58,865 nt of DNA from Nanobdellota archaeon. Lineage in GTDB: Archaea; Nanobdellota; Nanobdellia; Woesearchaeales; GW2011-AR9. Shown in pieces: positions 10,083-58,259 of this stretch (the first letter of the stretch is position 1; each line of letters begins with the position of its first letter). Location of the stretch: the NCBI GenBank assembly GCA_038046465.1, contig JBBSWB010000041.1, forward strand, positions 1 to 58,865, given 5' to 3'. The notes below the pieces were generated by a model. It had not been told where the DNA came from and made no database searches. It saw only the letters and a program-made list of their open reading frames with translations. The position numbers and the translations under genes were made by a program.

Positions 10083-10144
10083 AACAGAAGCTAAGAAGTA
10101 ATAAACAATATTTAAAGATAGTTGTGTTATAAGAATAATAAAAC

Positions 10145-36599: not shown

Positions 36600-36606
36600 T
36601 TCCTCT

Positions 36607-38256
36607 TTACCTCTTCTTTCTTATTGATAGTATTAGTTTTATTACAATTAAAATAATGATAACTAACACTAACAGCTTATAATTAAATGTTTTAAACGCA
36701 AAATCAAATTCCCGAGTCATCGACTTTAACAGGATGTTTTCTCTTTCTCCATATCTAACCCGCGCCGTTACAGTTGGATTGTCTTCAATATCCATTTCCT
36801 CCAGAAGCGCTTTAATCTTAAACAAATTCTTCTGCCCGGGCTTAATTTTTTGCTGTTCAGCGCCCAAAGTCACTTTCTCGCTGGCAATAATTAAATCAAC
36901 AATCTCAGCATCAGCATAGACATCTTTCTCGCCTTCATTTTTTACGATTAATTCAAATCGTTTCGTCCCTTTATTGTAAACCAGGCTTTGAATGGATATT
37001 TTTGACGAATCCTCAACGGCAACAACATCCAAATTCAAGGTCTTCGCCAATAGTTTAGTTAAGGAATTAGCGCTTTCTCCGAAGATAATTTTGCTCTCAA
37101 CTATTAGATTTTTATCAAGATAAGGCGTTAAGTCAAGGCTATAAACTTTAGTCAAAGTATCGCCTTCGTTAAGAAAGAAGGCTTTTTCATCACCAACTTC
37201 CGCAATGGCAGTCCCGTCTGCTTTAATTTGATGAGACAATGCCTGAGCATAAGTATAAACCGCGCCTTTATTTTTATAACTGACTTCCAGCTGCCTTGAA
37301 AGAGTATTGTAATGAACTGCTTCAATATCAATTTCCGAGTCATATTCCGGCAGAGGAAAGACATCAAGAGCGTAGATCTGCGAATTTCTTCCTTGCCCAT
37401 ACTTAAGAAGAATTTTTATTCCCGTATCTTCTCGTATTCTTTTGGCGTTGGCAAATAGGTCGTACCCAATAACAATCCCAGCTCTTACATCGGTATCCCG
37501 GATAAAATCTATAACTGGTTGGGGAACGTTGCTTGTTCCAATAAACAGGGCCGGGAATTCATTATTAAAAAAACCCAGTTCCAGAGTTTCTCCATCTGTA
37601 AGCAAGACCTGTTTTGTTGGCTTTTTATTAATAAATTTCTTTACAATCTCAATATTGTCTTGGTATCGGTCGCCTTTATTTATAATTAAAGGATTTAGAA
37701 CGCCGAGTTCTTCCTTAACTGCCCTGTTAAGATGACCATAAAAGAGAATATTATCTGCCGAAGCAGACAAAAAAGAAAAGAGGACATCAACATTTTCAGC
37801 ATCTGCAAAAAGAACAAAAGAATTTGTAAGCAAGGCATAAGGAGCTACTGAAATAGCATCATAGCCCAAACTGCCGTCAATCACTATAAAATTAGCAATG
37901 CCCTTCTCATCAGCTGCCTTCTTAGCAAACTCTAAATTGGTCTTTTGCGCATCTAAAGAGAGAAATTTTTCTACTTTAAAGCCCTGTTTTTCTAGCTGAA
38001 GCTGATAACCAAAAATAAGAGGTTCTTTAGATTCAATGAGCAAAATATCAACAGCCCCTCTGTTAAGAACCTCTTCGATCAACTGCAGACCTTGCGTTTC
38101 TTTAGCAACATAATGCGCATCTAAACCGTTCAACTTGGCATAAAGAATTCCTGTATATATATCCCGCCAGTCTTTTGAATTAATTACGACTTGATCCGCA
38201 GCACTGACAATAGGAAGAAGCAATAAGAATAATAACAATAAAAAATACCTTTTCAT
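36607..38256 (-). CDS. Surface protein with three alpha/beta repeats (cell-wall-binding-repeat-2-like), beta-rich domains and C-terminal TM anchor
   Basis: 549 aa with signal peptide LLLLPIVSA. Three similar segments of about 100 aa (VVINSKDW.., FIVIDGSLGYDAI.., VLLTDGETL..). Terminal TM helix plus KKR. Confidence 0.65.
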   Translation of the reverse strand: MKRYFLLLLFLLLLPIVSAADQVVINSKDWRDIYTGILYAKLNGLDAHYVAKETQGLQLIEEVLNRGAVDILLIESKEPLIFGYQLQLEKQGFKVEKFLSLDAQKTNLEFAKKAADEKGIANFIVIDGSLGYDAISVAPYALLTNSFVLFADAENVDVLFSFLSASADNILFYGHLNRAVKEELGVLNPLIINKGDRYQDNIEIVKKFINKKPTKQVLLTDGETLELGFFNNEFPALFIGTSNVPQPVIDFIRDTDVRAGIVIGYDLFANAKRIREDTGIKILLKYGQGRNSQIYALDVFPLPEYDSEIDIEAVHYNTLSRQLEVSYKNKGAVYTYAQALSHQIKADGTAIAEVGDEKAFFLNEGDTLTKVYSLDLTPYLDKNLIVESKIIFGESANSLTKLLAKTLNLDVVAVEDSSKISIQSLVYNKGTKRFELIVKNEGEKDVYADAEIVDLIIASEKVTLGAEQQKIKPGQKNLFKIKALLEEMDIEDNPTVTARVRYGERENILLKSMTREFDFAFKTFNYKLLVLVIIILIVIKLILSIRKKR

Positions 38257-38367
38257 AATCTTTCTTTTAAGTGTTTGTTTTATAATAATTTGTTGCTTTC
38301 ATTATATAAAATATAAGCCATAAATCCAAAACTTTAATAAACAAACCCTCCACTTTCTAATTAATTT

Positions 38368-38486
38368 GCCCCAGTAGCTTAGTGGCTATAGCACCTGACT
38401 TGTAGCCAACTATCTGCTATGTTTCCAACGAAATATAAGCATAGTAAGATATCAGGAGATCGGGAGTTCAACTCTCCCCTGGGGCT
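38368..38486 (+). tRNA. tRNA-Thr (anticodon TGT) with a canonical 46-nt intron at 37/38 (38405..38450)
   Basis: GCCCCAG TA GCTT AGTGGCTA TAGC A CCTGA CTTGTA [46 nt] A TCAGG AGATC GGGAG TTCAACT CTCCC CTGGGGC T. Central BHB helix CTTG/TAAG with 3-nt bulges. Confidence 0.9.
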
Positions 38487-38513
38487 TCCTTTTTTAATTT
38501 GTTTTTCTTTCAT

Positions 38514-38633
38514 GGCTTGTCCAGAATGAAAAACATTTGTATACTGGGGCACGGCGCGATTATAAATTTACTTCGTAAATTTATGCGCCTCCATTGGCAC
38601 CAGTATACAAATTAAGGGTATTCTAGACAAGCC
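38514..38633. other. 120-nt rod-like imperfect palindrome E immediately downstream of tRNA-Thr
   Basis: Nested arms are GGCTTGTC/GACAAGCC, AGAAT/ATTCT, TTTGTATACTGG/CCAGTATACAAA, GGCGC/GCGCC and ATAAATTTAC/GTAAATTTAT. Confidence 0.5.
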
Positions 38634-38732
38634 TTTCTTTCAGAAATTATTATAAACACCAAAACTACCATAATCAATAAAAAGATTAAAAGTAAACAAA
38701 ATTTAAAAAAGGAATAAAAAGAGGTTAAAAAG

Positions 38733-39485
38733 ATGAGACTTAAAAACAAGATTGCAATTATTACCGGTTCCCAACGGGGCATTGGCTTGGGCATTGCTGA
38801 AGAGATGGCCAAGGAAGGCGCTAATGTAGTTATCTCTGATCTCGATCAAAAAGATTGCGAAAAAGTCTGCCAGAGTTTAGAGAAAAAATATAAAATAAAA
38901 ACTTTAGCAGTAAAATGCGATGTTTCCAAGAAAAGTGAAATTGATGATTTAATAGAACAAACCATAACTAAATTCAAGCGCATTGATATTTTAGTCAATA
39001 ATGCCGGTATCGTCCGCTTTGGATCATTGCTGCAAAAGACGGAAAAAGAATGGGATGCCACTTTAGACATTAATTTGAAAAGTGTGTTCCTGTGCACCCA
39101 AGCTGCGGCCAAATATATGGTTAAACAAAAAAGCGGAAAAATAATTTCCTTGGCCAGTATTGCTGGCATGGTTGGTTTTGAAAATGTTGCTGATTATTGC
39201 GCATCGAAAGGAGGGATCATTAACCTCACTAAAGAATTAGCCTTAGAGTTAGCAAAATATAATATCAATGTTAATGCTATTGCTCCGGGAATTATTGAAA
39301 CCAAGATGACTGAAGGCATGCTTAAAGACGCAAAAAGCCGGGAAAATTTACTGGCGCAAACTCCGTTAAGAAGATTTGGCCAGCCGCAAGATATTGGTAA
39401 AGCCGCCGTATTTTTAGCGTCGGAAGAAGCTAATTTTATTACCGGACACACTTTAGTAATCGACGGGGGCTGGTTAGCCCGCTGA
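38733..39485 (+). CDS. Short-chain dehydrogenase/reductase (3-oxoacyl-ACP reductase FabG-like)
   Basis: TGS.RGIG cofactor motif, NNAG, and the S...Y...K catalytic triad (YCASK). Confidence 0.9.
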   Translation: MRLKNKIAIITGSQRGIGLGIAEEMAKEGANVVISDLDQKDCEKVCQSLEKKYKIKTLAVKCDVSKKSEIDDLIEQTITKFKRIDILVNNAGIVRFGSLLQKTEKEWDATLDINLKSVFLCTQAAAKYMVKQKSGKIISLASIAGMVGFENVADYCASKGGIINLTKELALELAKYNINVNAIAPGIIETKMTEGMLKDAKSRENLLAQTPLRRFGQPQDIGKAAVFLASEEANFITGHTLVIDGGWLAR

Positions 39486-39517
39486 ACGAAGAACAGAACA
39501 GACATTCATGAACACAA

Positions 39518-41116
39518 ATGAGATTAAATTTACTTATCGGAGGGAAAGCTGGACAGGGGATTAATAAGTTAGCAGAAATAATCTCTTCGTCATTAGTGCG
39601 TGCCGGCTGGTATGTATTTAATTACAAAGATTACCAAAGCGCAATCAAAGGCGGGCATAATTTTAATTTAATCAGTATCTCCGACCAAAATCTAGCTGCT
39701 TATGAAGAAGATTTAGATCTGCTGTTTGCGTTTGATGCACAGACTTATGACGAACATAAAAAAAATATCAGTAAAAAAACTATTCTAGCAACTGCAGATT
39801 CAGAATTAAATAAAAAAGTAGGCGGATTTTTTTTAGATTTATCCCAACTGGGTAAATTTGGCAACATGGCTTTTGCTGGATTTTTATTTAAGTGTTTAGG
39901 ATTAGATAAAAAATTTCTGCTGGAAGAAATAGAAAAAGAATTCAAACAAAAAGAGATTGTTATCGAGAATAAAAAAATTATTGAACAGTTTTATGCTCCT
40001 GAATACTCAGTGGATTTAAAACTGCCGGAACCACAGCAAAATGAACCACAACACCAACAAAAAAAAGAACTGCCGGGATACTCTCACTTATCCGGATCAG
40101 AAGCAATTTCTCAAGCAGCAGTGGAAGCAGGTTTAGAAATTTATTTTGGTTATCCCATGACTCCCTCTACCGGCGTATTGTCTTCCTTAGCTTTGAAACA
40201 AAAAGAAAACAAAGATTTATTTGTGTTTACCCCTGAAAATGAAATTGCTGTAATCAATTCCGCTTTAGGAGCTAGTTTTGCAGGAAGAAAAGTAATGGTC
40301 GGTACTTCTGGCGGAGGATTTGATTTGATGAGTGAAGCCATGAGTTTACAGGGGATGGTTGAGTTGCCTTTAGTGATTCATTTATCTCAACGGGCCGGAC
40401 CAGGAACGGGAGTTCCAACTTATTCTGGACAAGGTGATTTAAATGCGGCTATCTATGCCGGGCATGGTGAATTTCCTCGGTTAGTGGTTGCTCCAGGAGA
40501 TGCACAAGAAGCTTATGAAAAAACAATTGAAGCATTTTATCTTGCAGAAAAATTTAAGCTCCTGTCGATAATTTTAACGGATAAACATCTTGCTGAATCT
40601 GGTTATACCGACCAAATAAAAAAATCTTCCGTGGTTGTTCCTAAACGAGAAGATCTACTTAGCCAAGGCGTGGTTAAGAAAAATAGTTATGAACACGATT
40701 TATTTGGAAACACTACCGAAATCGCCGCAGAAATTAAAGAGAATACCGACCGAAGAATTGCTAAAACCAAACTAGTGGAAAAAGAAACTCAAAAATTTAC
40801 GCGCTACAAATTTTACGGAACAGGAAAAAATTTATTGATTGGCTTTGGCTCTACCAAAGGAGGCATTCTTGATGCTCTCCCTAATCTTCCTGAGTTTAGT
40901 TATTTACATTTAATTTATCTTGAACCTTTCCCTTCCGAAATTATTGCTTACCTACAGAAAGCAAAAAAAATATTGGTTATTGAACAAAATTCCACTGGAC
41001 AATTAGCCGATCTGCTCAGTAAACAATTAGCAGTTACTATTCCTGAACATAATAGAATCCTAAAGTATGATGGGCGCCCGTTCACGGCAAAAGATTTGTT
41101 AGGGAGAATAAAATAA
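39518..41116 (+). CDS. 2-oxoacid:ferredoxin oxidoreductase alpha subunit (gamma-alpha fusion, two-subunit type)
   Basis: N-terminal gamma-like GGKAGQGI domain followed by an alpha domain (GYPMTPST...), with the beta subunit directly downstream. Confidence 0.85.
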   Translation: MRLNLLIGGKAGQGINKLAEIISSSLVRAGWYVFNYKDYQSAIKGGHNFNLISISDQNLAAYEEDLDLLFAFDAQTYDEHKKNISKKTILATADSELNKKVGGFFLDLSQLGKFGNMAFAGFLFKCLGLDKKFLLEEIEKEFKQKEIVIENKKIIEQFYAPEYSVDLKLPEPQQNEPQHQQKKELPGYSHLSGSEAISQAAVEAGLEIYFGYPMTPSTGVLSSLALKQKENKDLFVFTPENEIAVINSALGASFAGRKVMVGTSGGGFDLMSEAMSLQGMVELPLVIHLSQRAGPGTGVPTYSGQGDLNAAIYAGHGEFPRLVVAPGDAQEAYEKTIEAFYLAEKFKLLSIILTDKHLAESGYTDQIKKSSVVVPKREDLLSQGVVKKNSYEHDLFGNTTEIAAEIKENTDRRIAKTKLVEKETQKFTRYKFYGTGKNLLIGFGSTKGGILDALPNLPEFSYLHLIYLEPFPSEIIAYLQKAKKILVIEQNSTGQLADLLSKQLAVTIPEHNRILKYDGRPFTAKDLLGRIK

Positions 41117-41139
41117 AGACCAACCTGAGTGAAATAAAA

Positions 41140-41937
41140 ATGTTAGAAACTAAAAATAAAATTACCTGGTGCCCAGGATGTCCCAATTATCTGATTAAGC
41201 AGGCCATCCAAACGGCCATAACTAATCTAATTCAACAAGGTTACCCTAAGGAAAGTTTTGTAGTAGTTACTGATATTGGCTGCAGCAGTAAAATCTATGA
41301 TTATTTAGACCTCTCTGCTTTTTATGGTCTGCATGGGCGGGCGATTCCCACTGGATTTGGAATTAAAGTCGGTAATCCTAAATTAAATGTGCTGGTTATT
41401 GCCGGAGATGGAGGCACCTATAATGAAGGGCTTGATCATTTTATTCACGCCTGTAGATATAATATTAATCTGACTCTGTTAGTCCACAACAATGGTGCGT
41501 TTTCTTTAACTACCGGACAAGCTTCAGCAACCACTAAAAAAGGTTTTATAGAAAAAACCCATCCGTTTGGCGTGCAAGAAGATGCTCTTAACCCGTTAAG
41601 TTTAGCCTTAGAATCGGGGGCTAGTTTTGTAGCCAGAACTTCGGCTTTAGATTTAAATCAAATGGCTGCTATCATTGAGCAAGGCATAAAACATCCGGGC
41701 TTTTCATTTATAGACATTTTACAGCCGTGTTTAATTTACAATAATTTTTCAGAAGTTTTGAAAAAAAATAGTTATATACTAAAAAACCCTTTACCGTTAG
41801 AAAAAGCACTGGTTGAAGCTAGAAAAAGCGCGTTTGCTTTGGAAAATCCGGCTAAAGAAAAAATAGCTCTGGGCGTTTTCTTTCAAGAAAAAAAGCCAAC
41901 TTTTGAAGAGAAATATTTTCAAAACCGAAATATTTAA
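41140..41937 (+). CDS. 2-oxoacid:ferredoxin oxidoreductase beta subunit (TPP-binding)
   Basis: WCPGCPNY and GDGG..NEG thiamine-diphosphate motifs. Confidence 0.88.
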   Translation: MLETKNKITWCPGCPNYLIKQAIQTAITNLIQQGYPKESFVVVTDIGCSSKIYDYLDLSAFYGLHGRAIPTGFGIKVGNPKLNVLVIAGDGGTYNEGLDHFIHACRYNINLTLLVHNNGAFSLTTGQASATTKKGFIEKTHPFGVQEDALNPLSLALESGASFVARTSALDLNQMAAIIEQGIKHPGFSFIDILQPCLIYNNFSEVLKKNSYILKNPLPLEKALVEARKSAFALENPAKEKIALGVFFQEKKPTFEEKYFQNRNI

Positions 41938-42000
41938 AAACAAAAAGCCTTTTTAACCAATAAGATAAATGATAGGTGTTAATCATTCTGGGTGTTAATT

Positions 42001-42630
42001 ATGGAAGAAAGCTTAAAAACTGGTACAACCACTGTTGGTTTAGTTTGTAAAGATGGAATCGTCTTAGCTGCTGATAAAAGAGCAACAGCTGGAGATATGA
42101 TCGTTGATAAAAGAGCAGAAAAAGTGCATATCATTTCTGATGATTTTGCTTTGACTATTGCCGGAGGAGTTTCTGACGCACAATTGCTGATCAAATTAAT
42201 CCGCGCAGAACTTAAGTTAAAAGAAGTATACACGGGTAAAAGACCAACTGCAAAAGAAGCAGCAAATTTATTGGGCGGATTAGTGTATAATGCTATCCGC
42301 AGACCTTCCATGCTGCCGGGAATCGTTCATTTTCTGTTAGCAGGTAAAGATATTCAAGGACTACACTTATACGATTTATTCCCTGACGGAAGTATTACTC
42401 ATATAAGAGATTACATTTCTTCCGGTTCAGGATCCGTTTTCGCTTACGGAGTATTAGAAACCCATTATAAAAAAGATATGACTGTAACTGAAGCAGTTGA
42501 GGTAGCTGTAAAAGCTATTAATACTGCCTTGCAAAGAGATTGCAATACGGGCAATGGAATAGATGTAATGGTTATTAATGAGAAGGAAATCAAGCGGGTG
42601 ATGCACAAAGAATTAGTGTATAATCTGTAA
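42001..42630 (+). CDS. psmB: Proteasome beta subunit
   Basis: Short propeptide, then TGTTTVGLVCKDGIVLAADKRAT with the Thr1 nucleophile. ATG at 42001 is preceded by GGTG; the track start is a GTG at 41992. Confidence 0.93.
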   Translation: MEESLKTGTTTVGLVCKDGIVLAADKRATAGDMIVDKRAEKVHIISDDFALTIAGGVSDAQLLIKLIRAELKLKEVYTGKRPTAKEAANLLGGLVYNAIRRPSMLPGIVHFLLAGKDIQGLHLYDLFPDGSITHIRDYISSGSGSVFAYGVLETHYKKDMTVTEAVEVAVKAINTALQRDCNTGNGIDVMVINEKEIKRVMHKELVYNL

Positions 42631-42711
42631 GAATGAATAAATTCTAAACAATTAATCTTCTTTATTATTACCAATAATGTACAGTAAATTATCACGAGGA
42701 AATACTTAACT

Positions 42712-44601
42712 ATGCCAGACATATTAAAAGAAATAATAAAAATCCTTCCTAAAGGCAAAATCTCTGATGCTGCTTTTGAAGGAGCAAACATTGTACTTTA
42801 TACTAAAGACCCAGAATATTTCATGGATAATAATGGCACCATTAGGGATGCCGTAAAAGAATTTAGAAAAAGAATTGAACTGCGTTCTGATCCGGCTTTG
42901 TGTTTAGAAGTCGAGAAAGCAGAAAAACTGTTAAAAGAACTTATTCCCGAAGAAGCGGGAGCTCAAGAATTTATCTTTGACCCGCCGCGCTCACAGGTTA
43001 TTATTCATGCCGATAAACCCGGATTAGTTATTGGAAAACAGGGAGAAATCTTAAGAGAAATACGTGCTAAAACTTTTTGGGTGCCGTTAATAAAACGCTT
43101 GCCTCCGATCAGATCAAAATTAATTGAAAGTATCCGTTCCGTTCTGTATGAACATGCTGATGAAAGAAAAAAGTTCCTGGATAAAACCGGACACCGGATT
43201 TATGACGGCTGGATTAGATCAAAAAAACACGAATGGGTTAGATTATCCTGTTTAGGTGCATCCCGGCAAGTTGGAAGAACCTGTTTCTTAATTCAAACTC
43301 CTGAATCACGAGTGTTAATTGATTGCGGTATTGACGCTAGCCAGGAAGGCACGGAAGCTTATCCTTTTTTAGATGCCCCTGAATTTAACATCAGCGAATT
43401 AGATGCAGTTATCGTTACTCACTCCCACTTAGATCATTCTGGTTTGATTCCTTACTTGTTTAAATTTGGATATACTGGACCAGTATATTGTACTCTTCCT
43501 ACTCGGGATGTTATGGCCCTGTTGCAATTAGATATGGTTAAAATTCAGCGCAGTGAAGGTAAAGAACCAATTTATACTAGTGAAGAAGTTCGACAAATGG
43601 TTTTACATACCATCTGCTTAGAGTATGAAGAAGTGACTGATATCACTCCTGATGTCCGCTTAACTTTTTATGGTGCGGGACACGTCATTGGAAGTTCCAT
43701 TGTGCATTTAAACATTGGAAATGGATTACATAATTTTGCTTATACTGGTGATTTAAAATATGCTCGAACTAATGTCTTAGAACCAGGTAATACTCAATTT
43801 CCCCGTCTGGAAACTTTAATGATTGAATCTACTTATGGTGGAAAAGAAAATGTTATGGCTGAAAAAGAAGCCGATGATTACATGATTAAAGTTATCCAAG
43901 AAACTTTTGCGCGGGGCGGGAAAGTATTGATGCCTGTATTAGGCTCAGGAAGAGCCCAGGAAGTAATGATTATTGTAGAAAGACTGATGCGGGAAAAATT
44001 AATCCCTGATGCGCCCGTATACCTTGATGGGATGTTATGGGACGTTACGGCTATTCATACCGCTTATCCAGAATATTTAAATCGAAACATTCGCGAACAG
44101 ATTTTCCATAAAGAAAATAATCCTTTCTTATCCGGAATATTCAAACAAGTTGGCTCTCCTAAAGAAAGAAAACAGATCATGTTAGAAGAAGGGTCTTGTT
44201 TAATCTTGGCAACTTCAGGAATGCTTACCGGCGGACCTTCCGTCGAATACCTTAAAGGATTGGGAGAAGGAAAAAAACATTCTTTGATCTTTAGCTGTTA
44301 TCAACCTCCCGGAAGTATGGGTTACCGCATTAGAAACGGAGAAAAAGAGATTATGGTCCGAGAAGAAGGTAAAAACCAGGTGCTTAAAATAAATATGGAA
44401 GTGCACAAAGTAGAAATTACCAACCACTCTGACCGAAAACAATTGATGAATTATGTAAAAAGATGTAATCCTCAGCCTAAAAAAGTCATTGTAGTGCACG
44501 GAGAAAGTTCAAGATGCTTAGATTTAGCTTCTTCGATACATAAGGTATACCGCATTGAAACGGTTGCTCCTAAAAACCTGGAAGTTATCAGGATTAAATA
44601 G
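42712..44601 (+). CDS. aCPSF1: KH-domain beta-CASP metallo-beta-lactamase ribonuclease
   Basis: N-terminal KH-like region, HSHLDHSG metallo-beta-lactamase motif and beta-CASP motifs; 629 aa, typical of archaeal CPSF1. Confidence 0.93.
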   Translation: MPDILKEIIKILPKGKISDAAFEGANIVLYTKDPEYFMDNNGTIRDAVKEFRKRIELRSDPALCLEVEKAEKLLKELIPEEAGAQEFIFDPPRSQVIIHADKPGLVIGKQGEILREIRAKTFWVPLIKRLPPIRSKLIESIRSVLYEHADERKKFLDKTGHRIYDGWIRSKKHEWVRLSCLGASRQVGRTCFLIQTPESRVLIDCGIDASQEGTEAYPFLDAPEFNISELDAVIVTHSHLDHSGLIPYLFKFGYTGPVYCTLPTRDVMALLQLDMVKIQRSEGKEPIYTSEEVRQMVLHTICLEYEEVTDITPDVRLTFYGAGHVIGSSIVHLNIGNGLHNFAYTGDLKYARTNVLEPGNTQFPRLETLMIESTYGGKENVMAEKEADDYMIKVIQETFARGGKVLMPVLGSGRAQEVMIIVERLMREKLIPDAPVYLDGMLWDVTAIHTAYPEYLNRNIREQIFHKENNPFLSGIFKQVGSPKERKQIMLEEGSCLILATSGMLTGGPSVEYLKGLGEGKKHSLIFSCYQPPGSMGYRIRNGEKEIMVREEGKNQVLKINMEVHKVEITNHSDRKQLMNYVKRCNPQPKKVIVVHGESSRCLDLASSIHKVYRIETVAPKNLEVIRIK

Positions 44602-44605
44602 TTCT

Positions 44606-44726
44606 AAAAGCCACCCGCCTGGCCAAGATGAGCGCGAGAGAATGTTTATTTTAATCAAAAATTAATTCCTATCCCTTTAAATTTTAATTGCAAGGATAGG
44701 TCGAGCGCTCGGCCAGGGTGGCTTTT
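44606..44726 (+). repeat. Structured hairpin repeat, copy C (family A/B/C)
   Basis: Stems are AAAAGCCACCC/GGGTGGCTTTT, CCTGGCC/GGCCAGG, GAGCGC/GCGCTC and CCTATCC/GGATAGG. Homologous to the reverse complement of 25997..26118. Confidence 0.7.
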
Positions 44727-44819
44727 GCGACCAGCTTAGACAGACTAATTCTACCTAAATATTTATAAAACCGATTAGGATTTTAATGACGTTAGTGCCA
44801 GTTGTTCACTCACGTTCAC

Positions 44820-44964
44820 GCCAGCGTCGCATAATTCGGTACTTTGCATAAGCAAAGGTTTACGCGAAGCGAAAAATTGCGCAGGTCTTGAAAACCTGTT
44901 CCTTCGGGAATTCTCGGTTCAAAGCCAGCAATCTAAATTGCTGATGAAATTCCGAGCGCTGGCG
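44820..44964 (+). tRNA. tRNA-Ser (anticodon TGA) with two introns: about 35 nt in the D-loop (about 44842..44876) and 27 nt in the T-loop at 59/60 (44924..44950)
   Basis: GCCAGCG TC GCA TAATTCGGTA [35] T TGC G CAGGT CTTGAAA ACCTG, long variable arm TTCC-TTCG-GGAA, then CTCGG TTCAAA [27] T CCGAG CGCTGGC G. Perfect hBHBh' at the T-loop junction. Confidence 0.8.
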
Positions 44965-44984
44965 CTTTTTATTTTCTAAAAGAA

Positions 44985-45689
44985 TTATTTCTTGGCTATT
45001 CCCCATAATAAATTAAAATAATTTTTAAAAGCATTCATTATGTTTTTGTTATTTATGAGTATGGCGGCAGGTTCAATCCCCCAAACAATAATTGCTACTT
45101 TGTCGTCATAGATATTTAGAGATACTGGAGAATCGTACTGCTTAGGAAGAGTTCTCACCAAGGCGAAAGGTGCAGTTTTGCCTTTCTGTCCACCAGTATA
45201 AATTATTTTAAGTTTTATCTGTTTTGCAACTCTTTTGGCCGTATAGCGCCCAACATAATAAGACAATGCTTTTTTAGCATAATCGGCTGGACCAAGAACT
45301 AGAATCTCCCCTTTAGATTGTAATTGGTCCTCAAATATGAACCTAACCCCTTCCAGCCCTTTATAAAATTGAGTTTCCTGCTTATTTTTGACTTCATTAA
45401 ATTTTGCTTCTAGAAAAGGCAGTACCTCGAGAAAGGCATCTTTTTTTGCATCTATGGAATTGAGAACATTCTGAGGATCCAAAGCCATATACAATCTTTT
45501 ATTATTCTCACGTATGAAGCTAACCTGCCCTTTTTTAATCATCCTTTCCAGAGCATCATAAACATTTCGGCGGTGAATACCCGTCTTTCGCGATAAAGCT
45601 CCTGCCTGCGCTTTGCCTAATTCAACCAGAGCAACATAAATCTTAGCCTCACAAAGCGTTAAGCCTGCTCCCATTAGTTCTTCATACAT
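44985..45689 (-). CDS. TrmB-family transcriptional regulator
   Basis: N-terminal wHTH L...EAK.Y.AL...G...A..L......I.R..VY..L..L..KG, plus a TrmB-like C-terminal domain. Confidence 0.75.
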   Translation of the reverse strand: MYEELMGAGLTLCEAKIYVALVELGKAQAGALSRKTGIHRRNVYDALERMIKKGQVSFIRENNKRLYMALDPQNVLNSIDAKKDAFLEVLPFLEAKFNEVKNKQETQFYKGLEGVRFIFEDQLQSKGEILVLGPADYAKKALSYYVGRYTAKRVAKQIKLKIIYTGGQKGKTAPFALVRTLPKQYDSPVSLNIYDDKVAIIVWGIEPAAILINNKNIMNAFKNYFNLLWGIAKK

Positions 45690-45800
45690 AAGTTTACAGA
45701 AATAGCCTATATTTTTATATCTTGCGGTGAATTTTACATTTTGTGGTAATGTCCATCACCCCAATCTTATTTATACTTCCTGCCTTTTTAAGCTTCTTAG

Positions 45801-46898
45801 GTGAAAAAAATGAAAGAAAAAATGAAATTATTAGAACCAATTGAACCAATGCTGGCAGTTTATGCCGGCGGAGAAAATGTATATGAAGATATATTAAACC
45901 GACACGGCCAGCTTACTTTTGCTGAACTTAAATACGACGGCTACCGCTTGCAGCTGCATAAGAAAGGAAGCACGGTTAAAGGATATACTAGAAATCTTAA
46001 TGATGTGCCTTTGGATATTTATCCTGAACTGTCCTCTTCGTTAAGCAACTTGCCAAACTGTATCTTAGATTGTGAACTTAATGGAGGTATTGGACATACT
46101 GGATTTAAGACGGTAAAAAACCGATTTAGGAGTAAGAAAACTGACTTAACTGCTTACGAGAAGAAAGCAGACTTGAGTAAACCTGTAGAATTAAGAGTTT
46201 TTGACGTTCTTTACTACGGAAAAAAATGGTTGATGGAACTTCCTTTACTTGAACGAAGGAATTATACTGAAAGGATCGAAGAGTCCAAGATTAGGCCTGG
46301 ACAGCAGTGGAGAGTAAATAGTGCAGAAACCTTAGAAGCTTTATTTGAAACGCTGATAGAAAGCAAGCATGAAGGGCTGGTTTGCAAAGACCCTTCTTCA
46401 TTATATTTGCCAGGAGATAAAAGCGGTAAATGGACTAAGATCAAAAAATTTGAAACTTTAGATTTAGTGGTGTTGGGAGTTTACCTCAACAATGAAGAGA
46501 TAAGCCAAATCCTTTGCGGCGCTTACAATGAAGAATCAAAATGTTTTGAAACGCTGGCAAAAATAAATGCCAAACGGGAAGGAACTAATCAAGTATTAGC
46601 TGATTTGCTTACAGGCAAGTTTCAAGCAGAAATACCTGCATCGGTAATCATTCACCCTAAGGCTAAAAGCGAAGATCTGCCCCAGCTTTATGTTGAACCG
46701 AGAGTATCAGTAGTTGTAGAAATAAAAGCTATGAACCTTAATTATGGCAAGAATGAATATAGCTGCGGCTTTGACGGAAACAAATCTTATTCGCTGCGGA
46801 TAGCCTGGGCAAAGCAGATTCGAGAAGACAAAAAACCAAGTCAAGCCACGACTACAACAACGGTGGCAGAATTGTATAAAATTCAGGAGGGATTATAA
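45801..46898 (+). CDS. ATP-dependent DNA ligase, minimal form (adenylation plus OB domains, no N-terminal DNA-binding domain)
   Basis: Motif I ELKYDGYR (KxDG), with motifs EGLV.K and KIK further on. At 365 aa it is well below the roughly 550-600 aa typical of archaeal replicative ligases (recalled from general knowledge). Confidence 0.85.
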   Translation: MKKMKEKMKLLEPIEPMLAVYAGGENVYEDILNRHGQLTFAELKYDGYRLQLHKKGSTVKGYTRNLNDVPLDIYPELSSSLSNLPNCILDCELNGGIGHTGFKTVKNRFRSKKTDLTAYEKKADLSKPVELRVFDVLYYGKKWLMELPLLERRNYTERIEESKIRPGQQWRVNSAETLEALFETLIESKHEGLVCKDPSSLYLPGDKSGKWTKIKKFETLDLVVLGVYLNNEEISQILCGAYNEESKCFETLAKINAKREGTNQVLADLLTGKFQAEIPASVIIHPKAKSEDLPQLYVEPRVSVVVEIKAMNLNYGKNEYSCGFDGNKSYSLRIAWAKQIREDKKPSQATTTTTVAELYKIQEGL

Positions 46899-46899
46899 A

Positions 46900-47058
46900 A
46901 TGATAAATACCAAAACGATGCTTAATGAAGTAAAAAAAAGAGAATTTTCAGAGGCAATGATAGAAGAAGTCGGCACTATCCGTTTTATGAGTGATACATT
47001 TCTCAAATCACTCACTTTTTTCTTAGTTCTATTTTTGGACTTACAAGAAATGCAGTAG
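46900..47058 (+). CDS. Small hypothetical protein (52 aa), not in the ORF track
   Basis: My translation: MINTKTMLNEVKKREFSEAMIEEVGTIRFMSDTFLKSLTFFLVLFLDLQEMQ. AGGAGGG lies 9-15 nt upstream, inside the ligase 3' end. Confidence 0.35.
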   Translation: MINTKTMLNEVKKREFSEAMIEEVGTIRFMSDTFLKSLTFFLVLFLDLQEMQ

Positions 47059-47139
47059 AGAGGAGCTTAAAACAAGAATATTTCTTAACTACTCGCCAAA
47101 GCTAATTACAAAAACGAGCAAAATCACTCACTTTTCGAA

Positions 47140-47682
47140 TTGTGCCAAGAAGTCAGAAAAGAGATAATCAAAGAACTATCGGCAGTTCAGAGGGAAGGTA
47201 TTGACCAGTTGATAAATCACTTGGAAGGAAATAATTTTTTCACTTCCCCCGCTTCAACTAAATTTCATGGTAATTATGTTGGCGGCCTGGCTGCTCACAG
47301 TTTGATGGTCTATAAAGAGTTTGACTTTTTGCTGAAAAGATATTCTGGAACCTTGGAACAGGATAGTCGGCGAATTGCTGGCATTTGTCATGACTTCTGT
47401 AAAATAGGAGTTTACCAGAAAAATGAATTAAAAAATGGGCGAATTCCGGCGAACCCGTATCATTTTGATGACCCTCTTCCAATCGGGCATGGAGAAAAAT
47501 CAATGTATCTGGTTTCGCAATATGTAAAATTAACGCCAAAAGAAGCTTTGCTGATCAGGTGGCATATGGGCAGCTATGACCCCAATTATGAAATCAATCA
47601 AGATAAACTAAAAAAAATATGTCCAGAATTATGCCTGCTTCATTGTGCGGATCAGCTGGTTTCCGGCGGATTGGGCTTATAG
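47140..47682 (+). CDS. HD-domain phosphohydrolase
   Basis: KFHG..VGGLAAHSL and GICHDFCK (H...HD) motifs. Only a TTG start is available in this frame. Confidence 0.7.
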   Translation: MCQEVRKEIIKELSAVQREGIDQLINHLEGNNFFTSPASTKFHGNYVGGLAAHSLMVYKEFDFLLKRYSGTLEQDSRRIAGICHDFCKIGVYQKNELKNGRIPANPYHFDDPLPIGHGEKSMYLVSQYVKLTPKEALLIRWHMGSYDPNYEINQDKLKKICPELCLLHCADQLVSGGLGL

Positions 47683-47761
47683 AACAGAACGACCTTTTTG
47701 GATGCAGTACTTTTTTTATTATATTTTATTTTTATTATATTCTAAGATAGGTAATTTAAAA

Positions 47762-47776
47762 GCGAAAGATTTATAA
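47762..47776 (+). promoter_or_regulatory. Second copy of the BRE/TATA-like 15-mer GCGAAAGATTTATAA
   Basis: Identical to 5856-5870. About 100 nt upstream of the ATG at 47874. Confidence 0.45.
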
Positions 47777-47873
47777 TAAATTAAAATTAACTGTTAGTTA
47801 GAAAAAATTAAATGTGAAAAAAGAGGTGTTAAATAATGGTGGAAAAAAAACCTGTTTGAGGTGAAGATGTTAT

Positions 47874-48143
47874 ATGAATAAAGCATTAAAATCTATTTTA
47901 TTTACAATGTTAAGTAAGAAATGTATCGGTGGGAAGCACACTCCCGAAGAAAAGTTGATTAAATCTAAAATAAAATGGCTCGAATCTGATGAAAAAAAAG
48001 AATTCGAGAAAGAATATAAACGAATAGTAAATAATGGTGTTATCCTTCGCTCAAAGAAAATGACTGGGAAAGGATCGGATTGGCATGTAAGCTTGAATCC
48101 AAGAATGTTAAAAGAATTATATGAAAAGTTGAGAACGCAATGA
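47874..48143 (+). CDS. Hypothetical small protein (89 aa)
   Basis: GAGGTG Shine-Dalgarno 11 nt upstream, and a 4-nt overlap with the next gene. Confidence 0.5.
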   Translation: MNKALKSILFTMLSKKCIGGKHTPEEKLIKSKIKWLESDEKKEFEKEYKRIVNNGVILRSKKMTGKGSDWHVSLNPRMLKELYEKLRTQ

Positions 48144-48523
48144 ATGAAAAGGTGTTAAAAATGAAAAACAAAGGCGCATTTTGTGAAACTTATGGTATCA
48201 CTATAGAAAATTGTATCCTCGAATATTTGTTAGAAAATCAGGATTTAGATATTGCTATCGGCGATATGGCGAAAGAACTAGATGTAAGCAAACCAAAAGC
48301 ATACGAAGTAATCAAAGAGTTTGAAGAAAAGGAATATATTATTAAATCTAGAGTTGTTGGAAAAACCCAACTGTACAAATTGAATAAAACAAATATTAGA
48401 GTAAAAATCTTTTTGAGAAACTTTGATGAATGTTTGCAGCTAGTGATTGAAGAACATAGTAATAAAAGTTCTACCATCAGTGCTCCAATGAGTATCGGAG
48501 TGGCATCGGCAAGATCATTTTGA
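48140..48523 (+). CDS. Winged-helix DNA-binding protein (127 aa)
   Basis: IGDMAKELDVSKPKAYEVIKEFEEKEYIIKSRVVGKTQLYKLN is a wHTH pattern. Confidence 0.55.
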   Translation: MNEKVLKMKNKGAFCETYGITIENCILEYLLENQDLDIAIGDMAKELDVSKPKAYEVIKEFEEKEYIIKSRVVGKTQLYKLNKTNIRVKIFLRNFDECLQLVIEEHSNKSSTISAPMSIGVASARSF

Positions 48524-48530
48524 TTTCACA

Positions 48531-48548
48531 TTCACGCCAGCGTCGCAT
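48531..48548 (+). pseudogene. Orphan fragment of the tRNA-Ser 5' end (5-nt leader plus first 13 nt)
   Basis: TTCAC GCCAGCGTCGCAT is identical to 44815-44832 and 48595-48612, but no tRNA body follows. Confidence 0.6.
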
Positions 48549-48599
48549 CCACAGAGAAATAATTTCCCTGGGCGCGACTCAGCATTCACTCACGTTCAC

Positions 48600-48749
48600 G
48601 CCAGCGTCGCATAATCCGGTATTGCGGCAGTCTCGAACAGATCTTTACAATCGAAAGAAAACTGCTCCCTCTGGGATTCTCGGTTCAAACGAGAAACTGC
48701 GTTTCTTACCCAGAAAAACGCAGTTTTTCTGAATGTCCGAGCGCTGGCG
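48600..48749 (+). tRNA. tRNA-Ser (anticodon CGA) with two introns: 22 nt in the anticodon loop (about 48638..48659) and 46 nt in the T-loop at 59/60 (48690..48735)
   Basis: GCCAGCG TC GCA TAATCCGGTAT TGC G GCAGT CTCGAA [22] A ACTGC, variable arm TCCC-TCT-GGGA, then CTCGG TTCAAA [46] T CCGAG CGCTGGC G. A T-run follows. Confidence 0.8.
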
Positions 48750-48789
48750 CTTTTTATTTTTAAAAAAAAGCTAACCTTTCAAAATAAAG

Positions 48790-49860
48790 TTAAGAACACT
48801 TAAACCCTTCTCCTTCTAATAATCGTTTCTGCCAATTCCGTAAGCAGCTGCAGTCGTTGTTGAAAACGATTTGATTCATCTGCTCTTTATTGATGATCAA
48901 ATGGCCTTTTATTTTTAGTTTACCAGCAAGTTTGGCCTGCAATTCATACAATTTTTCAAATTGCTCTTTCTCTTCTACGGTGCTGTATTTTCTTTTGATT
49001 TTAACTAACTGAACTGGTTCTTGTTTTCCTTTTTCCACGGCTTCCTGAAATAATTTTGCTTTAATTCTAACAATAGGATGGACGCTGCGCACGAAACTCC
49101 AATTTATTGCCGGATTAACGGCAAATTCTTTTAATTTTTGCGTACTGATAACAAAATGAACGGGGCGGTCTACTTCTTGGGCTAACTGTTTGCGCAGAAA
49201 AAATAATTGCTTAAAGATACCTAATTGCTGTTCGGATAAGTCCCTTACTCCGCGGACATCCATAAATTCCTGTTCAGTATAAGTAAATTCAATATTCTCA
49301 ATCATCGCAAATTCTTCTATTGCCCAGGACAGGCGATCTTTTTCTTGCAATTCTTTCTTTAAAATTTCCCGCAGGGGCAATAAGTATAAAATATCCGTTA
49401 CCGCATAAGCTAACATGGCCGGAGAAATGGGGCGCTTGGTCCAATCAGCCATCTGAAATTTCTTTTCTTTGTGGATACTTAGATATTCTTCCAATAATGC
49501 GCCCAAGCCGATATTTTCTTTTCCTAATAATAAAGCAGCAATCTGGGTGTCAAAAATGTTTTTAGGGCGGCAGGAAAATTGTTCATACAAAATTCTGAAA
49601 TCAAAACCGACATCATGGAAGACTTTTTGAATACTTTTATTTTCCAAAACTTCAATAAGAGGCTTAATTTCTTTTAGAGTCAGCACATCCACAACCCAAT
49701 TTTCTATGCCGTTAGAAATCTGGATTAAAGTAATATAGGCTCCGTAATGATGTAAGTTGTTTTCACACTCTAAATCGACTGCTAAATCAGCAGAAAGCCC
49801 CCACTGTTTAGCTGCTTCCTCTAACTCAGTTGGAGTATTAATGTACGTAAAATGAGACAT
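48790..49860 (-). CDS. rnd: RNase D-like 3'-5' exoribonuclease (DEDDy domain plus HRDC-like domain)
   Basis: DLECEN, HDVGFDFRIL and ADWTKRP......YAVTDILYL exonuclease motifs. Confidence 0.8.
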   Translation of the reverse strand: MSHFTYINTPTELEEAAKQWGLSADLAVDLECENNLHHYGAYITLIQISNGIENWVVDVLTLKEIKPLIEVLENKSIQKVFHDVGFDFRILYEQFSCRPKNIFDTQIAALLLGKENIGLGALLEEYLSIHKEKKFQMADWTKRPISPAMLAYAVTDILYLLPLREILKKELQEKDRLSWAIEEFAMIENIEFTYTEQEFMDVRGVRDLSEQQLGIFKQLFFLRKQLAQEVDRPVHFVISTQKLKEFAVNPAINWSFVRSVHPIVRIKAKLFQEAVEKGKQEPVQLVKIKRKYSTVEEKEQFEKLYELQAKLAGKLKIKGHLIINKEQMNQIVFNNDCSCLRNWQKRLLEGEGFKCS

Positions 49861-49889
49861 AAATTGAATATTTAAAAGTAATATATAAA

Positions 49890-50276
49890 TTGTTTTGTTT
49901 TTTTGGTTTGAATATTTTAAGAATTAAGAAAAATAAACCTGATTTTTTGTTAGTAGTTAATTTTTATTCATTACAATCGTTACTATATAGCCACGGTTCA
50001 TTTTCCTCCGAGTTAAAAAACCTGCAAATTTTAGAAAAAAATAATGAATATATACTAACGGTTGCTAATGTTCCTGATATTTCTGGGCTTAAAGTTAGTT
50101 ATCCAAAATGTGTTGGTAAATATTATGTTCAAAAAAGGATTGATTGCTTAAAAACACCCCAATCAGAAGAAATAAGTAAAGAATATTATCAAGAAAAAGT
50201 TGGAGAACTAAAAGAAAAACAAGAAAGTCCGATTTTTTTAAGAATTTTTTCTTTCTTTAAAAGATTTTTTCCTTAA
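49890..50276 (+). CDS. Doubtful hypothetical ORF (128 aa, TTG start only)
   Basis: No ATG in frame and no Shine-Dalgarno. Kept only because nothing else occupies the gap. Confidence 0.2.
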   Translation: MFCFFGLNILRIKKNKPDFLLVVNFYSLQSLLYSHGSFSSELKNLQILEKNNEYILTVANVPDISGLKVSYPKCVGKYYVQKRIDCLKTPQSEEISKEYYQEKVGELKEKQESPIFLRIFSFFKRFFP

Positions 50277-50385
50277 GAAATTTAAAATTATATTTAATGC
50301 GTATATGTCCGCCCTTTTTTGATATCGATTAAATACACAATTTTTTAAAGCAAGGTTTTAATATCTGTGAACAATATCAGTTTAA

Positions 50386-51891
50386 ATGAAGCTAACTGCG
50401 CCATTATTGTCCGTTCTGGCTTTAGGCTGTGCTGGACTACCGGGCAATATTTCTTTACCAGAAGTTTATACTAATTTAGTTTGTTCTGAAGAAACCCGAA
50501 TGCTGGAAGAAGCAGTAAATCAAGAAGCAAAAAAGAATGAAAACATTTACGAATGTAAAGTCGATACTACTAATTTTTTTATCCCAGAAGTATTGGGCTG
50601 CTCGGTTAATGCGGGATTATATTTTTCTGGTGAAGAACCTTTTGTGGATCAAGAGCAACGGGAACGATATGGGATGTTTTATACTTTTGAACCTTATCCG
50701 GAACGGATAGATCATTACCAACAAGCAGTAGAAAGAAAAAATGGTGCAGAAACGCCTAAATTAGATTTTAAGTTGAGCATGGGTAGTTATTATACGACTT
50801 CAGCAAATTTAAAACAAATTGAAACCTTACAGAAAAAAGAAAAACGCAGTAAATACGAAGAGCAGCTGTTAAAAAGCTTAGCAGAAAAAGTGGCCCGGGT
50901 TAAGGAGATCCAAACTATTCTTAGCTGGGAAGGATTTTATCAAAAAGAAATTAACGGAGTTTATCCGCAGAAATCTGTCCGAGATTACCAACGCTTTCAC
51001 CATTTGCCTGCCCACGGATGGATGGATTTAGAAACTAAACAACAGATGATTATGCCTTTAGAACAACAGGTTTTTCCGGAGCGGCAGAATATCTTACATA
51101 TTTTAGAAGAACGGGTCTTTCATGCCCAATGCCGCATTAATGAACGTGAAGTTTATCCCTATGTAATTGAAGATGCTGCCTTGGATAAGCTAGTAAGTTC
51201 GGCTGCAGAACAATTAGGATTGGATTCGATTAAAGGAACGGCTGATTTTTTTAAAAATGATCCGGGAGAAGTTACCGTGCAGCTGAAGATTCCTGGACGT
51301 TATGTTCAAGAAACCATGAGTTTAGAAATGCAGGTGATTAAATCTAAAAAAGATCGCTCCAAAACTTCTTTCACTTTATATGCTTGGGAAGATGGGGAAG
51401 AGATTGAACTGTTTAAAAGAAGAGCAGTAGTGGGCGGTCCGCACAAAGTCTTTGGGGTAAAAAAAGAATTTGATACTCCCGCCGGAGAAGCTTATTTAAA
51501 ACGGGTAGTGGTGATGCCTCACTGGAATCCGCCTGCTTGGTCCAAAGAAAAGTATGGTGAAGTAAGCACTGTACCGGGCCCTTTAAACGCCTATGGTATG
51601 TTTATGACTGAATTATATTACAGCGATAAAATTCCTAAAGACCCTTATGTTTGGTATATGGACGGAGATTTAGGATTTCGATTACATTTAACCGCTAGTC
51701 CGGGAAGTGTGGAAGGCGGTTATGGTAAATCCCACGGATGTGTAAGATTACATCCTACGGACGGGAGCAGGGTGTTTTATTTTATGTTACGATATACGCC
51801 GCATTTACCGATGAAAGAACTGTTTAAGAAAGGCGAGATTATTCCGTTCGTACCCGGAGAAATGATTAAGGTCAGGATTAAGGAGAAGTGA
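50386..51891 (+). CDS. L,D-transpeptidase (YkuD) domain lipoprotein with peptidoglycan-binding-like domain
   Basis: Lipobox LSVLALGC. PG_binding_1-like segment GFYQKEINGVYPQKSVRDYQRFHHLPAHGWMDLETKQQM. Catalytic motif GKSHGCVRL. Confidence 0.8.
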   Translation: MKLTAPLLSVLALGCAGLPGNISLPEVYTNLVCSEETRMLEEAVNQEAKKNENIYECKVDTTNFFIPEVLGCSVNAGLYFSGEEPFVDQEQRERYGMFYTFEPYPERIDHYQQAVERKNGAETPKLDFKLSMGSYYTTSANLKQIETLQKKEKRSKYEEQLLKSLAEKVARVKEIQTILSWEGFYQKEINGVYPQKSVRDYQRFHHLPAHGWMDLETKQQMIMPLEQQVFPERQNILHILEERVFHAQCRINEREVYPYVIEDAALDKLVSSAAEQLGLDSIKGTADFFKNDPGEVTVQLKIPGRYVQETMSLEMQVIKSKKDRSKTSFTLYAWEDGEEIELFKRRAVVGGPHKVFGVKKEFDTPAGEAYLKRVVVMPHWNPPAWSKEKYGEVSTVPGPLNAYGMFMTELYYSDKIPKDPYVWYMDGDLGFRLHLTASPGSVEGGYGKSHGCVRLHPTDGSRVFYFMLRYTPHLPMKELFKKGEIIPFVPGEMIKVRIKEK

Positions 51892-51969
51892 TTTTAATTG
51901 TCGACAGAAAGTCGATGCCTGGCCAAAAAATAAATTTTCTGCCGAAATATTTATATACTATTATAAAAA

Positions 51970-51987
51970 TGTAATAGTTATATTACA
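51970..51987. promoter_or_regulatory. Palindromic operator-like site TGTAATA-GTTA-TATTACA upstream of the HTH-NTase gene
   Basis: Read directly from the sequence, adjacent to a TATA-like ATTTATATA. Confidence 0.4.
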
Positions 51988-52004
51988 AAAAGGTAATAAT
52001 ACTA

Positions 52005-58120: not shown

Positions 58121-58228
58121 GTGAACCTGGAAGTAAACCAGATTGACCAGTCTAAAAAGAGTACGATAATAGGTGTGCGGGAGCTCTAATCTTCCAAAAC
58201 TTAATTTCCTCATCGCAACATTTATAAA

Positions 58229-58247
58229 CGTTACCAAATTGGTAACG
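58229..58247. promoter_or_regulatory. Perfect palindrome CGTTACCAA-A-TTGGTAACG abutting a TATA box (TTTATAAA 58221-58228)
   Basis: Read directly from the sequence, just upstream of the third HTH-NTase gene. Confidence 0.5.
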
Positions 58248-58259
58248 ATTGTTATTAAA

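Follow-up and report, generated by a model that had tools for sequence, protein, structure and literature searches.

A tRNA-Ser(UGA) gene with predicted bulge-helix-bulge introns in its D-loop and T-loop in a Woesearchaeal chromosome fragment

Anatomy of the tRNA-Ser(UGA) gene

The stretch of DNA analysed here (the window, contig JBBSWB010000041.1, 58,865 nucleotides (nt)) is an archaeal chromosome fragment with a GC content of ~36% from a Woesearchaeota/Nanoarchaeota (DPANN) archaeon, and encodes aEF-1alpha, aEF-2, S10, L7Ae, S28e, FtsZ, Spt5, a proteasome subunit, FttA, PGK and POR. Introns are present in all four of its tRNA genes (4/4). The subject of this report is one of them, a tRNA-Ser(UGA) gene located on the forward strand at 44820-44964, just downstream of the gene for FttA (aCPSF1, 42712-44601). 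An earlier note had read it as a class II tRNA with two introns, neither of them at the canonical 37/38 position, and this description is borne out by in-silico splicing, by an 82/83 match to an intronless ortholog and by the presence of a bulge-helix-bulge (BHB) motif at both junctions.

From sequence, in-silico splicing and ortholog alignment the gene resolves into three exons, reading GCCAGCG-TC-GCA-TAATTCGGT[35 nt]ATTGC-G-CAGGT-CTTGAAA-ACCTG-TTCCTTCGGGAATT-CTCGG-TTCAAA[27 nt]T-CCGAG-CGCTGGC-G. Exon 1 (44820-44840, tRNA nt 1-20) carries the 5' strands of the acceptor and D stems and the D-loop up to U20, and is followed by intron 1, 35 nt inserted in the D-loop at 20/21 (44841-44875, ACTTTGCATAAGCAAAGGTTTACGCGAAGCGAAAA), which was delimited by the BHB scan, the minimum free energy (MFE) fold, relatives and the ortholog. 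Exon 2 (44876-44923, nt 21-59) comprises the 3' strand of the D stem, the anticodon arm (CAGGT-CTTGAAA-ACCTG, anticodon TGA), the long variable arm (TTCC-TTCG-GGAA), the 5' strand of the T stem and the T-loop up to A59. Intron 2, 27 nt at T-loop position 59/60 (44924-44950, GCCAGCAATCTAAATTGCTGATGAAAT), was defined by its sequence, relatives and the ortholog, and precedes exon 3 (44951-44964, nt 60-73), which supplies U60, the 3' strands of the T stem (CTCGG/CCGAG) and of the acceptor stem, and the discriminator G. The acceptor stem GCCAGCG/CGCTGGC plus discriminator occupies 44820-44826 and 44957-44964, and CCA is not encoded at the 3' end. Spanning 145 nt of one strand, the exons are colinear and contiguous, which sets the gene apart from split and permuted tRNA genes. 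Directly behind it, the T-rich trailer CTTTTTATTTT (44965-44975, +), identical at the sister tRNA-Ser gene, is likely an archaeal oligo-T terminator.

Excising both inserts leaves 83 nt that ARAGORN calls as tRNA-Ser(tga), folded into a cloverleaf with a 7-base-pair (bp) acceptor stem, a 3-bp D stem, G18 G19, a long variable arm, the T-loop TTCAAAT and G73, as befits a class II tRNA-Ser. With neither or just one insert excised, ARAGORN returned no tRNA call, which agrees with the earlier claim that a tRNA with a long variable arm can be recovered only once both insertions are removed; likewise, the unspliced gene went undetected when the raw window was scanned with ARAGORN and with the Rfam tRNA model (gathering threshold; E<=10).

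In both inserts the junctions fall within two 3-nt bulges around a 4-bp helix. At the T-loop all the helices, bulges and the hairpin that had been listed beforehand were found, namely the outer helix h CTCGG/CCGAG, the central helix H TTCA/TGAA, the bulges AAG and ATT, and the inner helix h' CAGCAAT/ATTGCTG closed by the loop CTAA. For the D-loop, the earlier note had described an insertion of about 35 nt with uncertain borders and without a strict BHB. Its presence and approximate size were correct, as was the uninterrupted D-loop of the sister gene at 48600 (TAATCCGGTAT). A scan for 3-4-3 motifs did, however, locate a strict hBHBh' (h TAA/TTG, H TTCG/CGAA, bulges GTA and AAA, h' CTTTGC/GCGAAG), in which cutting after the second bulge nucleotide bounds precisely 44841-44875. 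The terminal CGAA of the intron pairs with U16 U17 C17a G18, placing the splice site between U20 and A21; at the level of the sequence a one-base A/A sliding ambiguity persists at this border. The hairpin CTTTGC-ATAA-GCAAAG proposed for this insert is present in the sequence, but as a minority fold (pairing probability ~0.2), the relevant helix being CTTTGC/GCGAAG (~0.78). An unconstrained MFE fold of the 145-nt precursor contains the acceptor stem, the D-loop H with its 3-nt GUA bulge and h', the anticodon arm, the variable arm and the T stem, at -53.7 kcal/mol (z = -4.56; 0/200 shuffles as good).

Intronless ortholog and conservation in relatives

The FttA encoded upstream of the gene is 97% identical to that of a relative, L262 (CAZKNU010000029.1), with which the window is syntenic over ~11 kb at 82-90% nucleotide identity. 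The L262 ortholog of the tRNA gene is uninterrupted, 83 nt long and identical at 82/83 positions to the spliced product. An alignment of the two loci (A3) contains clean indels of 35 and 27 nt, between GGT and ATTGCG and between TTCAAA and TCCGAG, which coincide exactly with the predicted intron borders. Excision at the bulge sites hence restores a canonical tRNA, as judged by both the ARAGORN call and the ortholog match. The exons differ by one substitution, T16 here versus C16 in L262; the pairing partner of T16 is the final A in the CGAA of the intron. Another Woesearchaeote (L018) possesses an uninterrupted tRNA-Ser(UGA) that is 74/83 identical to the spliced product, the differences being confined to compensated stem changes and the loop of the variable arm; outside compensated stems, the spliced tRNA matches the uninterrupted tRNA-Ser genes of relatives base for base.

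To extend the comparison, species-representative genomes were scanned with the first 21 nt of the gene, which yielded 25 loci, and later scans added more. Nearly all of the 25 belong to metagenome-assembled genomes of Candidatus Woesearchaeota or Nanoarchaeota, some being labelled 'uncultured Methanosarcinales'. The 16-mer TCGCATAATYCGGTAC proved too unspecific for scans of genomes and metagenomes, giving mostly chance bacterial matches and, after filtering, ~15 extra true relatives. Alignment with the tRNA-Ser genes of related genomes, a check suggested by the earlier note, revealed the same insertion sites, conserved BHBs and the intronless ortholog described above.

An insert occupies the same D-loop site in the tRNA-Ser genes (UGA, CGA and GCU) of 16 distinct relatives, with intron lengths of 20-46 nt. 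Helix H is paired in 16/16 (TTCG/CGAA, TCCG/CGGA, TTCG/CGGA or TCCG/CGGG), the first bulge is always GTA, the second bulge ends in A21, and h' spans 3-12 bp of varied sequence, such as CATTGC/GCAATG, CGCGC/GTGCG and CTTCT/AGAAG. In an alignment anchored on the intron ends and not fitted to the structure (A2), 96.4% of the cells of the D-loop BHB are paired, versus 83.8% in column shuffles, none of which reached this value (0/500); sliding the partners by 1-3 columns as a control left 35-46% paired. Both-sided changes occur at five pairs, and covariation with the intron is seen at the H pair of D-loop position 17, which is CG in 10 sequences, UA in 4 and UG in 2. The helices are thus kept by compensatory changes while the length and sequence of the intron drift. 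A T-loop 59/60 intron with H TTCA/TGAA is found in 17 genes (15 relatives plus both tRNA-Ser genes of the window); its first bulge reads AAN, its second closes with U60, and it measures 27-88 nt.

A decaying tRNA-Ser pseudogene, holding two unremoved insertions and giving rise to no functional tRNA, would accommodate three observations: the insertions are recent, since the closest relative lacks them; the leader hairpin of the ortholog has been lost from this copy; and standard tRNA finders miss the gene. We nevertheless consider it highly unlikely. The exons are intact and match the ortholog at all but one position, the cloverleaf is perfect, and there are neither broken stems, nor lost invariant bases, nor inserts devoid of splicing signals. 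Both insertions sit in BHB motifs and are bounded to the nucleotide by the predicted cleavage sites, and the only exon difference improves the pairing with the intron CGAA. Moreover, both sites recur in many relatives with BHBs that are conserved and covary, which would be unexpected of random insertions.

The presence of a BHB motif carries little weight in itself. Counted over the whole window with G.U pairs allowed, h of at least 3 and h' of at least 6, such motifs number 15 on the forward and 23 on the reverse strand, with a mean of 12.1 in shuffles of the forward strand. We therefore discarded BHB frequency as evidence, strict-looking motifs being equally common in shuffled sequence, and base the case instead on three points: the inserts are placed exactly, their removal restores the tRNA, and the motifs are conserved in relatives.

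That close relatives differ in having the inserts would also fit self-splicing group I or II introns (archaeal group I introns are on record, PMC6125680) or miniature transposable elements that are excised from the DNA. To this we assign a negligible probability: at 27 and 35 nt the inserts are far below the size of a ribozyme (core at least ~200 nt), no Rfam match falls on them at E<=10 (the region 36000-52000 yields one tRNA and weak noise), terminal inverted repeats and target-site duplications are absent, and the sole conserved features of the inserts are those of BHB introns.

Splicing, intron turnover and known systems

Several observations weigh against the assignment of both inserts as BHB introns of an active gene. 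The D-loop BHB has a weak outer helix h (A-U, A-U, U.G), which competes with the D stem and is wholly absent in three relatives. In the MFE fold, the 3' splice site of the D-loop intron falls within a 3x4 internal loop instead of a clean 3-nt bulge. The D-loop motif may thus function as a relaxed HBh', for which an EndA of broad specificity would be required. A C.A mismatch starts the h' of the T-loop motif, between the bulge and the inner 7-bp hairpin. Pfam scans of ~50 open reading frames (ORFs) of the window, covering all but two large and several short ones, revealed no EndA, RtcB or RNase P protein, and the splicing enzyme is assumed from the lineage. Lastly, the gene has a predicted 23-nt leader (see below) in a lineage whose tRNA promoters otherwise predict leaderless transcripts.

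The weak outer helix and the unclean 3' site could also be accommodated if only the T-loop insert were an intron and the D-loop insert were retained as an extra arm of an expanded tRNA or of a different RNA. We find this hard to credit, as the insert varies from 20 to 46 nt in relatives with only its BHB elements conserved, is missing from the ortholog and from many functional-looking paralogs, and would break the region of the tertiary contact between G18-G19 and the T-loop. In addition, the equivalent site of Methanopyrus kandleri (20b/21) is cleaved by EndA in vitro (PMC5829648). Taking these points together, we conclude that the Woesearchaeota/Nanoarchaeota (DPANN) archaeon very probably has a functional tRNA-Ser(UGA) gene at 44820-44964, with three exons and two BHB introns.

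For such a gene we infer the following course of expression. Transcription would begin from the TATA promoter ~50 nt upstream, and in the precursor D-loop residues U16-G18 (UUCG) would pair with the CGAA at the 3' end of the first intron, and T-loop residues U54-A57 (UUCA) with the UGAA of the second, generating 4-bp helices each flanked by two 3-nt bulges. EndA would then cut within the bulges, on the 3' side of U20 and A59 and on the 5' side of A21 and U60; in keeping with the established archaeal pathway, the cuts would produce 2',3'-cyclic phosphate and 5'-OH termini. An RtcB-type ligase would join the three exons, the introns may circularise, and maturation would be completed by trimming of the 5' leader and 3' trailer and by addition of CCA, because none is encoded. 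Nothing in these findings changes the known mechanism of splicing.

Both introns are likely to be evolutionarily recent and mobile. L001, L017 and L164 have closely related 35-nt D-loop introns, that of L164 being identical at 30/35 positions when compared by hand, and tRNA-Ser paralogs share identical acceptor and D-arm sequences; gene conversion, with another tRNA-Ser paralog as donor, probably brought in the D-arm and the D-loop intron together. The T-loop intron belongs to a family that also resides in the tRNA-Ala of the same genome. That gene, tRNA-Ala(CGC) at 9942-10082 on the reverse strand, harbours a 68-nt T-loop 59/60 BHB intron (9956-10023), upon removal of which a perfect 73-nt tRNA-Ala with G3.U70 is obtained; the coordinates given by ARAGORN (10011-10081) are wrong. 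The 11-mer GCCAGCAATCT, of which the window contains only two exact copies, starts both the tRNA-Ala and the tRNA-Ser(UGA) T-loop introns, whose 3' ends are similar as well (TTGCTGCACGAAAG in Ala, TTGCTGATGAAAT in Ser(UGA)). The exon-pairing segment fits the T-loop of the respective host, forming TTCG/CGAA in the Ala intron and TTCA/TGAA in the Ser intron. Judged by their sequences, these introns form one family, and the host-matched pairing is the signature of a translocatable one, as described for Thermoproteales.

Non-canonical and multiple BHB introns are known in DPANN archaea (PMC5829648, PMC3239211), and multi-intron tRNAs, 59/60 introns and a D-loop 20b/21 intron have all been published; the gene is accordingly a new example of a layout known in archaea. 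In an incomplete coverage of the literature we found no published description of these introns in Woesearchaeota. The closest counterpart of the D-loop intron is in M. kandleri pre-tRNA-Glu(UUC), which combines the above-mentioned D-loop intron with a second one (Kaneta et al. 2018, PMC5829648). Both precursors carry a BHB-type D-loop intron immediately 5' of nucleotide 21 plus a second intron. However, the motif of M. kandleri is a relaxed HBh' and its second intron is at the canonical 37/38, whereas the present gene allows a full hBHBh' to be drawn and has its second intron at 59/60; also, the former is a tRNA-Glu of a Euryarchaeote, the latter a class II tRNA-Ser of a DPANN archaeon.

The T-loop intron finds a parallel in ARMAN-2 (Candidatus Micrarchaeum), where pre-tRNA-Cys bears a 59/60 intron and pre-tRNA-Pro(GGG) bears introns at 53/54 and 59/60 (Fujishima et al. 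2011, PMC3239211). The two systems share a DPANN host, a 59/60 intron, two non-canonical introns in one tRNA and BHBs of strict or relaxed form. They differ in that the EndA of ARMAN-2 is of the epsilon2 type with an L2 loop, while an alpha4-type enzyme with an L3 loop is reported for Woesearchaeota (PMC5829648), and in that the combination of D-loop and T-loop introns in a tRNA-Ser is absent from the description of ARMAN-2 (PMC3239211). The alpha4-type EndA with an L3 insertion has been reported in DPANN lineages that include one Woesearchaeote (Kaneta et al., PMC5829648).

Multi-intron tRNAs with 'translocatable' non-canonical introns have been described in Thermoproteales (Sugahara 2008 and Fujishima 2010, as cited in PMC4033280, PMC4390854 and PMC8450103). 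As far as these citing papers relate, up to three BHB introns occur there per tRNA at non-canonical positions, a multi-intron layout likewise encountered here, and homologous introns at the same position of different tRNAs (here 59/60 of Ala and Ser) imply intron transposition. Thermoproteales are hyperthermophilic Crenarchaeota, whereas the present host is a mesophilic, low-GC DPANN archaeon in which an (alpha-beta)2 EndA with an L1 loop is not expected. A further difference from the Thermoproteales work so cited is that, here, the gain or loss can be dated as very recent from an intronless ortholog with 97% protein identity.

The locus captures a snapshot of intron turnover, as genomes with 97% identical FttA differ in both introns; the D-loop family is common to serine isoacceptors and the T-loop family to tRNA-Ala and tRNA-Ser, with a host-adapted pairing segment. 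Material of this kind on the gain of non-canonical introns has been sought in reviews (PMC4033280). It also has a practical side. Standard tRNA finders miss tRNA-Ser(UGA) and its sister gene and mis-call tRNA-Ala in the same window, and Woesearchaeal genomes will therefore seem to lack serine tRNAs. An 'incomplete tRNA set' of DPANN archaea has indeed been noted and manual curation urged (Kaneta et al., PMC5829648).

Promoters, leader module and other features of the window

A predicted TATA box, TTTATAAA (44762-44769, +), preceded by CCTAAATA, which resembles a transcription factor B recognition element, lies upstream of tRNA-Ser(UGA). In relatives the consensus CCTAAA-N-TTTATAAA ends 24-27 nt before the +1 nucleotide of tRNA genes of many isotypes without leader module (modal spacing, 25 genes, loci L003-L311), and the regions concerned in the window are 10083-10120, 38330-38367 and 44762-44796. 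This spacing predicts leaderless or nearly leaderless tRNA transcripts. It recalls Nanoarchaeum equitans, whose leaderless tRNA genes have promoters 26-27 nt upstream and which lacks RNase P (PMC10100707); in the window and its relatives, too, the TATA box is 24-27 nt before nucleotide +1. On RNase P in Woesearchaeota nothing was found in the literature searched.

The tRNA-Ser genes depart from this pattern, with leaders that are often 50-94 nt long in the lineage. At tRNA-Ser(UGA) a 23-nt leader is predicted from the promoter spacing (44797-44819, +), consisting of GCCAG (44797-44801), which is a truncated copy of tRNA nt 1-5 beginning 27 nt downstream of the TATA box, and of the spacer TTGTTCACTCACGTTCAC behind it. 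The stretch attcacGCCAGCGTCGCAT of the sister gene, made up of 6 flanking nt and tRNA nt 1-13, recurs without a mismatch 64 nt upstream, at 48530-48548, and the leader (48536-48599) contains between the copies a small hairpin, GCGCGACtcaGC, which is complementary to tRNA nt 1-11, and a spacer. The same order, a copy of tRNA nt 1-13, a hairpin, the complement of nt 1-11, a spacer of 4-17 nt (longer in a few genes) and the tRNA, recurs in 22 distinct tRNA-Ser genes, including the sister gene and both L262 orthologs, and was found with no other isotype. Besides the window, the loci are L003, L004, L008, L009, L012, L014, L018, L023, L024, L025, L108, L262, L268, L269, L305, L309, L311 and L312; some loci (L309, L311) seem to hold leader units in tandem.

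The upstream copy tracks the acceptor variants of its own gene (GCCACTG, GCCACCG, GCCATCG, GCGTGGC) and the complement tracks the copy, while the hairpin keeps its stem and differs in sequence between genomes. In the 13 leaders with a detected TATA box, the box is 24-28 nt before the upstream copy, the spacing that separates it from +1 in module-free tRNAs. Relative to L262, 42 nt have been deleted upstream of tRNA-Ser(UGA) (window 44770-44819 versus L262:6190-6254), which in L262 comprise the remainder of the 5' copy together with the hairpin and the segment complementary to the 5' strand. With the module partly deleted here, it follows that either the module is dispensable or the 5' maturation of tRNA-Ser(UGA) is impaired.

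Two other readings of these upstream sequences were abandoned. The copy at 48536 is not plausible as a true 5' exon joined by EndA, no conserved BHB linking the copies in 17 leaders, and GACGTTAG upstream of tRNA-Ser(UGA) is not a remnant of the segment complementary to the 5' strand, the L262 alignment identifying it as promoter-proximal flank. By hand inspection, the only self-complementary 4-mer within nt 1-13 is GCGT, and its flanks do not pair.

That the tRNA-Ser genes of the lineage carry a previously undescribed 5' module is a suggestion that we regard as doubtful, yet the leader might be the part of the locus that is new; for N. equitans, nothing resembling a leader with a copy of tRNA nt 1-13 has been reported. 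Since other tRNA promoters of the lineage predict leaderless transcripts, the module may be a device for unusual, possibly RNase-P-independent, 5'-end maturation or for folding control. Alternatively, a small mobile element with tRNA-Ser as its target, possibly related to whatever spreads the BHB introns, may have left it behind.

The sister gene itself, tRNA-Ser(CGA) at 48600-48749 (+), combines its uninterrupted D-loop with a 46-nt intron at 59/60 (48690-48735) that has a strict BHB, and a 22-nt intron in the anticodon loop (about 48638-48659) whose placement is ambiguous within a run of A. Scanning found no strict 3-4-3 BHB for the latter, and its motif appears relaxed. In the related genes L013 and L025 the anticodon-loop intron likewise shows just a 3-bp CUC/GAG helix beside the anticodon stem. 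At L006:314-584 one tRNA-Ser-like gene holds another within it: between the variable arm and the T stem of the outer gene, whose anticodon stem has two mismatches, lies a complete tRNA-Ser(CGA)-like gene (GCTGCGA...TCGCAGCG) that has an anticodon-loop intron of its own. The genes may be nested, an insertion may have given rise to a pseudogene, or the assembly may be at fault.

The interval between the two tRNA-Ser genes of the window encodes a TrmB-family regulator, an ATP-dependent DNA ligase, an HD-domain protein and small HTH proteins. The idea that it is an integrated element was dismissed, as there is no integrase and the interval is syntenic in L262. Comparison of window 44965-50323 with L262:6339-11997 does uncover a local rearrangement: a segment homologous to window 49966-50323 directly follows the tRNA-Ser(UGA) ortholog of L262 (6915-7292), before the block of TrmB regulator and DNA ligase.

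The fourth tRNA gene, tRNA-Thr(UGU) at 38368-38486, has an intron in its anticodon loop. Just downstream, at 38534-38596 on the reverse strand, is a sub-threshold Rfam match to the GA-cis RNA (27.6 bits versus a gathering threshold of 34.7; E = 0.03). Towards the right end of the window, ORFs for nucleotidyltransferase (MNT-like) and HEPN-domain proteins (52005-52586, 53798-54271, 54246-54803 and 58173-58859) accompany a Bro-N domain protein (56219-57058), and this end may constitute a toxin-antitoxin or mobile gene cluster.

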